Position numbers: made by a program
NCBI RefSeq assembly: GCF_001677475.2
Contig: NZ_CP015229.1
DNA length: 64,000 nucleotides
Origin: Escherichia coli
Lineage (GTDB): Bacteria; Pseudomonadota; Gammaproteobacteria; Enterobacterales; Enterobacteriaceae
Direction: 5' to 3' (one strand)
Shown here: one piece after another, positions 33,462-35,221 of the stretch
How the letters are laid out: every line of letters begins with the position of its first letter
Numbering within the stretch: the first letter of the stretch is position 1

Positions 33462-35221
33462 TAACCACATCATGTTTATGATGATGCAAAAATAACACAT
33501 CTAATTTATTAATTATAAAGGGCTTTAATTTTTAGCCCTTTTATTTTTGGTGTTATGCTTTTAAATTTTATGCAAGCGCTAAAAATTATATGTTTCGTCT
33601 TCGATTTTTGTTGTTTTAATGTAAATTTTGACCATTTGGTCCACTTTTTCCTGCTCATTTTTATTTCATGCAATCTTCTTGCTGCGCAAGCGTTTTCCAG
33701 AAAAGGTTATATGATCTTTTTGTCGCTTAATGCCTGTAAAACATGCATGAGCCACAAAATAATATAAAAAATCCTGCCATTAAGTTGACTTTTAGCGCCC
33801 ATATCTCCAGAATGCCGCCGTTTGCCAGAAATTCGTCGGTAAGCAGATTTGCATTGATTTGCGTCATCATTGTGAATTAATATGCAAATAAAGTGAGTGA
33901 ATATTCTCTGGAGGGTGTTTTGATTAAGTCAGCGCTATTGGTTCTGGAAGACGGAACCCAGTTTCACGGTCGGGCCATAGGGGCAACAGGTTCGGCGGTT
34001 GGGGAAGTCGTTTTCAATACTTCAATGACCGGTTATCAAGAAATCCTCACTGATCCTTCCTATTCTCGTCAAATCGTTACTCTTACTTATCCCCATATTG
34101 GCAATGTCGGCACTAATGACGCCGATGAAGAATCTTCTCAGGTACATGCACAAGGTCTGGTGATTCGCGACCTGCCGCTGATTGCCAGCAACTTCCGTAA
34201 TACCGAAGACCTCTCTTCTTACCTGAAGCGCCATAACATCGTGGCGATTGCCGATATCGATACCCGTAAGCTGACGCGTTTACTGCGCGAGAAAGGCGCA
34301 CAGAATGGCTGCATTATCGCAGACGATAACCCGGATGCGGCGCTGGCGTTAGAAAAAGCCCGCGCGTTCCCAGGTCTGAACGGCATGGATCTGGCAAAAG
34401 AAGTGACCACCGCAGAAGCCTATAGCTGGACACAAGGGAGCTGGACGCTGACCGGCGGCCTGCCAGAAGCGAAAAAAGAAGACGAGCTGCCGTTCCATGT
34501 TGTGGCTTATGATTTTGGTGCCAAGCGCAACATCCTGCGGATGCTGGTGGACAGAGGCTGTCGTCTGACCATCGTTCCGGCGCAAACTTCTGCGGAAGAC
34601 GTGCTGAAAATGAATCCAGACGGCATCTTCCTCTCCAACGGCCCTGGCGATCCGGCACCGTGCGATTACGCCATTACCGCCATCCAGAAATTCCTCGAAA
34701 CCGACATCCCGGTATTTGGTATCTGCCTCGGTCATCAGCTGCTGGCGCTGGCAAGTGGGGCGAAGACCATCAAAATGAAATTTGGTCACCACGGCGGCAA
34801 CCATCCGGTGAAAGATATTGAGAAAAATGTGGTGATGATCACCGCGCAAAACCACGGTTTTGCGGTGGACGAAGCAACATTACCTGCAAACCTGCGTGTT
34901 ACGCATAAATCCCTGTTCGACGGTACGTTACAGGGCATTCATCGCACCGATAAACCGGCGTTCAGCTTCCAGGGGCACCCTGAAGCCAGCCCTGGTCCAC
35001 ACGACGCCGCGCCGTTGTTCGACCACTTTATCGAGTTAATTGAGCAGTACCGTAAAACCGCTAAGTAATCAGGAGTAAAAGAGCCATGCCAAAACGTACA
35101 GATATAAAAAGTATCCTGATTCTGGGTGCGGGCCCGATTGTTATCGGTCAGGCGTGTGAGTTTGACTACTCTGGCGCGCAAGCATGTAAAGCCCTGCGCG
35201 AAGAGGGTTACCGCGTCATTC

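Follow-up and report, generated by a model that had tools for sequence, protein, structure and literature searches.

The AT-rich spacer between dapB and carA in an Escherichia coli chromosome is almost certainly the known carAB control region joined to the dapB terminator

We analyzed a 64-kb stretch of the Escherichia coli chromosome (the window) and asked what lies in the long AT-rich DNA between dapB and carA. Judging from the sites that it carries and their positions, this spacer is, with very little room for doubt, the carAB control region in its canonical enterobacterial form, directly adjoined by the 3' untranslated region (3' UTR) and terminator of dapB. The spacer is already known, is ordinary, and is explained by published carAB regulation; that it is long and AT-rich needs no new explanation and matters little. 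The region can be regarded as a positive control, in which a scan of the sequence recovers the textbook multi-input operator. Two observations are mildly new. One is a natural polymorphism in the IHF core of the operator, and the other is that the length of the spacer and the spacing of its sites vary by no more than a few base pairs across eight enterobacterial genera, while the sequence between the sites is free to change.

RESULTS AND DISCUSSION

Extent and composition of the dapB-carA spacer

The upstream gene, dapB (32643-33464, plus strand), is an open reading frame (ORF) of 273 amino acids (aa) with the Pfam domains DapB_N and DapB_C, is collinear with K-12 b0031, and ends in a TAA stop codon at 33462-33464. 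The DapB C terminus reads ...DVLYLNNL here and ...DVLDLNNL in K-12, an Asp-to-Tyr difference six residues from the end (codon 33447-33449). Downstream, carA (33920-35068, plus strand) encodes 382 aa with the Pfam domains CPSase_sm_chain and GATase, is collinear with K-12 b0032/b0033, and is followed on its 3' side by carB, which starts at 35086. From the dapB TAA to the carA TTG, the spacer spans exactly 33465-33919, or 455 bp, with a GC content of 33.2% versus 50.4% for the whole window. A first-pass annotation, which had described a long AT-rich spacer of ∼450 bp, was accurate on both length and composition. Equally AT-rich windows of 455 bp make up only 3.3% of the 64 kb, and elsewhere they are found in three places only: at both ends of a fimbrial island (18.5-25.0 kb) and in the caiT-fixA spacer (46.1-46.8 kb). 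The divergent caiT-fixA spacer (46086-46808) is the sole other native intergenic region in the window that matches the dapB-carA spacer in AT-richness. In the K-12 annotation of the corresponding 50 kb, an intergenic gap of 455 bp ranks among the longest.

The first-pass annotation had also given carA a TTG start, and several lines of evidence agree with it. The ORF lister places the start at GTG 33893, which is merely the first start codon after a stop. The K-12 RefSeq annotation and a review of carAB regulation (Charlier et al. 2018, PMC6245113) both give TTG, and TTG occupies the start position (33920-33922) in every one of the 111 Enterobacterales loci whose upstream sequence was long enough, a count made with a search pattern that did not contain the start codon. 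The Shine-Dalgarno sequence GGAGG (33910-33914, plus strand) ends 5 nt before the TTG at 33920, and both elements are identical to those of K-12. From the pattern work on the 111 loci, only this TTG count and a visual alignment were used; the RUT-box and IHF-core counts obtained with fixed-position regular expressions caught neighboring TTAATT strings or shifted sites and were dropped.

The spacer aligns without gaps to the carAB control region of K-12

The K-12 carAB control region, with its promoters P1 and P2 and its inputs from ArgR, PepA, PurR, RutR, IHF, and PyrH (Charlier et al. 2018, PMC6245113), has the same flanking genes and the same 455-bp length as the spacer described here. Alignment to K-12 positions 29196-29650 revealed 26 substitutions and no indels (94.3% identity). 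The RUT box, the PUR box, the GATC, the -35, -10, discriminator, and GTTTGC elements of P1, the ARG boxes, the Shine-Dalgarno sequence, and the TTG are shared identically and at equal distances; among the core sites, the only difference from K-12 is one base of the IHF core (33511). The proposal that the spacer is a multi-input carAB control region is supported by these published K-12 sites, which are found at matching positions.

Promoters P1 and P2 and the ArgR operator

Promoter P1, which is controlled by pyrimidines, purines, and ppGpp, was placed at 33785-33826 (plus strand) by promoter scan, K-12 identity, and mapping of the transcription start site (TSS). The scan gave a -35 element TTGACT (33785-33790), a -10 element CAGAAT (33808-33813) at a spacing of 17 bp, and a discriminator GCCGCC (33814-33819), all on the plus strand. 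The +1 G follows at 33820 and the slippage site GTTTGC at 33820-33825, and these elements are identical to K-12. The P1 stretch TCTCCAGAATGCCGCCGTTTGCC is almost invariant in an alignment of 25 enterobacterial sequences. Both the GCCGCC discriminator and the GTTTGCC initial sequence are identical to K-12, and the predicted P1 start lies 67 nt before the predicted start of P2.

The P1 start can be tied to an RNA. ES003 is a short transcript of 53 nt, defined by RNA-seq in K-12 at 29551-29603 and starting from the experimentally determined TSS 29551 (Rau et al. 2015, PMC4676190). Its Rfam family (RF02750) matches the window at 33820-33872 (plus strand) over its full length (model positions 1-53 of 53), at 83.4 bits (gathering score, 37). 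The match begins at the P1 transcription start and takes up the 5' end of the leader. Because ES003 and TSS 29551 map to 33820, the +1 of P1 is fixed at this position. The window differs from the family at one base, 33861, which falls in a predicted loop.

Promoter P2, the arginine-controlled promoter, was placed at 33849-33888 (plus strand) from the published distance, by which its start lies 67 nt downstream of the P1 start (PMC6245113), that is, at ∼33887. Its probable hexamers are TTGATT (-35, 33854-33859) and TAATAT (-10, 33878-33883). The ArgR operator, recognized by consensus match and K-12 identity, extends over 33871-33909 (plus strand) and consists of ARG box 1 (TGTGAATTAATATGCAAA, 33871-33888) and ARG box 2 (AGTGAGTGAATATTCTCT, 33892-33909), which have one and three mismatches, respectively, to the consensus WNTGAATWWWWATTCANW. 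This is the sole pair of ARG boxes with the canonical 3-bp gap in the window. Both boxes are identical to K-12 and almost invariant in the 25-sequence alignment; ARG boxes are thus present upstream of carA, which was the point on which the first-pass reading had staked itself. By the coordinates determined here, the boxes extend from about -16 to +23 of P2, versus the partial overlap with the -35 element stated in PMC6245113; a second paper describes them as partially overlapping the promoter (PMC2952853). By the mechanism known from K-12, hexameric ArgR with arginine bound would sit on the two boxes, cover the core promoter, and exclude RNA polymerase from P2. Transcripts from P1 and from P2 would both be translated from the GGAGG and TTG described above.

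The upstream operator of P1

Sites farther upstream were mapped by projecting the positions given in PMC6245113 from a P1 +1 at 33820. The published positions of the RUT box (-192/-177), the PUR box (-128.5), the GATC (-106), and the IHF site (-324/-287) land exactly on matching motifs. The RUT box, the activator site for RutR (TTGACCATTTGGTCCA, 33628-33643, -192 to -177, plus strand), is identical to K-12 and is the sole match in the window to TTGACCANNTGGTCAA with at most two mismatches. The PUR box, the PurR site (GCGCAAGCGTTTTCCA, 33684-33699, centered at -128.5, plus strand), is likewise identical to K-12 and at the published position. Its core CGCAAGCGTTT is nearly invariant among the 25 aligned sequences, and its three mismatches to the generic consensus are at chance level in the window. 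Searches for PurR and IHF sites by consensus only are at chance level here, and both sites were assigned by K-12 identity and position.

In the zone expected to be wrapped by one PepA hexamer (33540-33760, -280 to -60; PMC6245113, PMC2655662), the RUT box and GTTAnnTGATCTTTTTG are both embedded in conserved blocks. The Dam site GATC (33713-33716, with its A at -106) was assigned by its published position and lies within a conserved flanking block; methylation of the carAB GATC is blocked by PepA and IHF (PMC6245113). The IHF site, placed by the footprint published in the same review (-324 to -287), falls at 33496-33533, with its core at 33502-33514 on the minus strand.

The carAB mechanism has been established for K-12, and from the identity of the sites we infer that ArgR, PurR, RutR, PepA, and IHF bind and regulate in this strain as well. 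RutR at the RUT box would activate P1 unless uracil is bound. A single PepA hexamer would wrap ∼230 bp (33540-33760), with repression of P1 as the result, and PurR at the PUR box would act only through this wrapped structure. IHF, at its far-upstream site, would depend on or modulate the wrapping and would be needed for full expression as well as for full repression. According to the published mechanism (PMC6245113), P1 output would be lowered further by UTP-driven reiterative transcription at GTTTGC (stuttering at GUUU) and by ppGpp, whose effect is exerted at the GCCGCC discriminator. The length of the spacer would follow from the needs of the P1 operator, for which ∼325 bp of DNA with correct spacing must precede the P1 start. 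The two checks proposed with the first-pass annotation, a search for ARG and PurR boxes and an alignment to K-12, both came out in its favor; it left unmentioned the RutR box, the IHF site, PepA wrapping, the UTP-sensitive slippage, and the stringent-control discriminator, all of which have their counterparts here.

Sites and spacing are conserved across enterobacterial genera

The dapB-carA spacer measures 453-458 bp in 22 species of eight genera, and each anchor site keeps its distance to carA to within 2 bp. For footprinting, we aligned 25 sequences from Escherichia, Citrobacter, Klebsiella, Raoultella, Kosakonia, Enterobacter, Pluralibacter, Pseudocitrobacter, and Salmonella. On the dapB side, the near-invariant blocks are the IHF core, the stem of the dapB terminator, the RUT box with its flanks, the PUR box, and the GATC block. 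On the carA side, they are an A-rich stretch upstream of the P1 -35 element, the P1 core through GTTTGCC, the P2 -35 region, and the ARG boxes through the Shine-Dalgarno sequence. The sequence between these blocks is poorly conserved. Near-invariant sites at constant spacing are the pattern that a protein-wrapped, spacing-dependent operator would produce. Experiments by Devroede et al. in 2006 reportedly showed that spacing and phasing matter in the carAB operator.

An exception in gene arrangement was seen in Salmonella enterica subsp. arizonae, in which dapB and carA are 2345 bp apart instead of ∼455 bp. There, the sequence of the small RNA (sRNA) DapZ still adjoins dapB, and carA has kept the ∼455 bp on its upstream side, with the IHF core among them. 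An insertion has therefore separated the dapB terminator from the carAB operator at this locus.

The spacer allele belongs to a somewhat divergent lineage

The K-12 chromosome start, from thrL on, is collinear with the window, and the two sequences are 97.6-98.5% identical. The spacer was found, as one copy, in 5425 of 5426 complete E. coli genomes, among which the best identity to the allele described here was 96.7%; for the rihC-dapB-carA stretch, the best identity was 97.4%. Representatives of other Escherichia species reached 90-93% over dapB-carA. Taken together, these identities point to a source within E. coli in the broad sense, in a somewhat divergent lineage. The nearest allele found, that of strain UTME-7, differs from the window at 15 positions. 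Alleles of the O157:H7, O55:H7, and O145:H28 type differ at 18-21 positions and share with the window the IHF-core A at 33511, an A in the terminator at 33534, and several dapB-proximal variants. Comparison of eight E. coli alleles revealed seven positions private to the window (33501, 33577, 33589, 33596, 33603, 33703, and 33861), none of which is in a core motif. Of these, 33861 is an A-to-G substitution in the nonconserved spacer of P2.

A natural polymorphism in the IHF core

The single core-site difference from K-12 is the G-to-A change at 33511 (C to T on the strand of the core), by which AATCAA becomes AATTAA and the TTGATT conserved across genera is altered. The predicted IHF core reads AATTAATAAATTA here and AATCAATAAATTA in K-12, with one mismatch to WATCAANNNNTTR. 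In the 25-sequence alignment, only the window and E. coli UTME-7 have an A at 33511, and all others have a G. An exact 30-mer carrying the variant occurs in 378 of the 5426 E. coli genomes, mainly of serotypes O157:H7, O55:H7, and O145:H28, so that at least 378 share it; the K-12 version of the same 30-mer occurs in 2091 of 5426. The IHF input may be weaker here owing to this change. One could speculate further that the A at 33511 weakens IHF binding and narrows both the maximal expression of P1 and its repression by uracil in the lineages that carry it, a suggestion that we regard as improbable. If it were true, 33511 would represent a natural regulatory polymorphism in a textbook operator.

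The dapB-proximal third combines a terminator with the IHF site

The substitutions relative to K-12 are unevenly distributed. Twenty of the 26 fall in 33470-33604, the 135 bp nearest dapB, where the local divergence is 14.8%, and the other six are spread over the remaining 315 bp (1.9%). In its dapB-proximal third, then, the allele is not K-12-like. One potential explanation is that this third (33465 to ∼33604) is functionally unrelated to carAB and holds nothing but the dapB 3' UTR, its terminator, and neutral filler; the divergence would then be accounted for. The structure at its dapB end fits this explanation. RNA folding predicts an intrinsic terminator for dapB at 33517-33548 (plus strand), with an 8-bp stem (AAAGGGCU, 33517-33524, paired with AGCCCUUU, 33534-33541), a 9-nt loop, the tail UAUUUUU, and a free energy of -10.5 kcal/mol. 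A simple terminator scan with loops of at most 8 nt listed none in 33300-34100; it missed this terminator because the loop of 9 nt exceeds its limit. The pattern GGGC..GCCC followed by a T-run is kept in most of the 25 aligned species. The same third also shows weak homology to DapZ (see below), and the sequence from the terminator to the RUT box is poorly conserved across genera.

Against this explanation, the same third contains the IHF footprint published for -324 to -287, which overlaps the terminator DNA, and the TTGATT of the IHF core is conserved across genera. Moreover, the poorly conserved filler differs in length by no more than a few base pairs over eight genera, which suggests a constraint on spacing rather than neutrality. 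We therefore consider it doubtful that the third as a whole is unrelated to carAB; both readings are partly true, and the dapB-proximal third serves two purposes. The claim of the first-pass annotation that the spacer is carAB control DNA holds overall but not for the first ∼85 bp, which are dapB 3' UTR and terminator and overlap the IHF site. With this amendment, the reading of the spacer as carAB control region plus dapB 3' end is the one we retain.

DapZ and ES003 as candidate small RNAs

The two Rfam families with similarity to the spacer raise the possibility that the region also encodes functional sRNAs, one resembling DapZ from the 3' end of dapB and the other, ES003, from P1. DapZ is a genuine 3' UTR-derived, Hfq-dependent sRNA of Salmonella (Chao et al. 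2012, as cited in PMC7821165), and Klebsiella has an orthologue (PMC11347178). The DapZ model (RF02551) scores 84-100 bits directly 3' of dapB in Salmonella, Raoultella, Kosakonia, Citrobacter, Enterobacter, and Klebsiella. In the window, the dapB 3' UTR (33468-33548, plus strand) appears to be a decayed positional counterpart of DapZ: it occupies the same place right after the dapB stop codon and has the same terminator hairpin and U-tail, which align to the 3' hairpin and U-tail of the model, but the seed region and the first hairpin are not conserved, and the G/U-rich seed is degenerate in the alignment. Only the terminator hairpin aligns well, and with 23.8 bits against a gathering score of 56, the sequence was rejected as a member of the family. 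The seed region and first hairpin are likewise not conserved in any of the Escherichia loci examined, and none of the six Escherichia loci tested gave a DapZ match at gathering level. Given the high scores in the six other genera and the subthreshold scores in Escherichia, the latter seems to have lost a recognizable DapZ and kept the terminator. This pattern agrees with published remarks that the dapB 3' UTR varies among enterobacteria.

ES003 scores above its Rfam gathering score and corresponds to a discrete 53-nt RNA-seq signal that is 133-fold lower in stationary phase (PMC4676190). However, it lacks a terminator, no target of it is known, and its position is that of the P1 leader. Its 3' end (33872) lies one base into ARG box 1. 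Ending where it does, ES003 looks more like a P1 transcript that stalled or was processed than like an sRNA gene of its own; it may be a stable 5' fragment, or it may reflect RNA polymerase stalling ahead of an ArgR/P2 complex, the latter being our own conjecture. Functional sRNAs in the form of ES003 or the DapZ remnant are unsupported and, in our judgment, highly improbable.

No hidden element explains the length of the spacer

It is next to inconceivable that the spacer owes its length to an additional hidden element, be it a gene for a small protein, the remnant of a mobile element, or an insertion specific to this strain: although five ORFs of 31-70 aa can be drawn in it and none of the 5426 complete E. 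coli genomes exceeds 96.7% identity to its allele, translation of these ORFs in seven Escherichia alleles revealed stops or frameshifts in K-12 or other Escherichia, K-12 RefSeq has nothing annotated in the spacer, and a mobile or strain-specific insertion is ruled out by the gap-free K-12 alignment of identical length and by the 453-458 bp conserved across eight genera. The earlier descriptions of the spacer as noncoding and as free of any strain-specific element stand, the former in view of the interrupted ORFs and the latter in view of a comparison with K-12 that yielded 26 substitutions and no insertion.

Other differences from K-12 in the window

Elsewhere in the window, a 6.5-kb AT-rich insertion (18352-24855) lies between nhaR and rpsT; it is absent from K-12, which has IS1A there. 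On the minus strand of this island lies a chaperone-usher fimbrial operon, with an usher (19186-21636), a PapD-type chaperone (21649-22332), a fimbrial subunit (22382-22915), and a 319-aa ORF (18214-19173) with no Pfam match. A 473-aa ORF in the same island (23216-24637) gave only a subthreshold match to pentapeptide repeats. The K-12 elements IS186A (15387-16731) and IS1A (19796-20563) are both missing from the window, with junctions at window positions 15288 and 18351. Measured per 150 bp against an overall divergence from K-12 of ∼2.4%, peaks occur at 5401-5550 (21%), 7501-7800 (11-15%), 24901-25050 (15%), and 39001-39150 (29%), the last and strongest of which is near the caiF/caiE junction.
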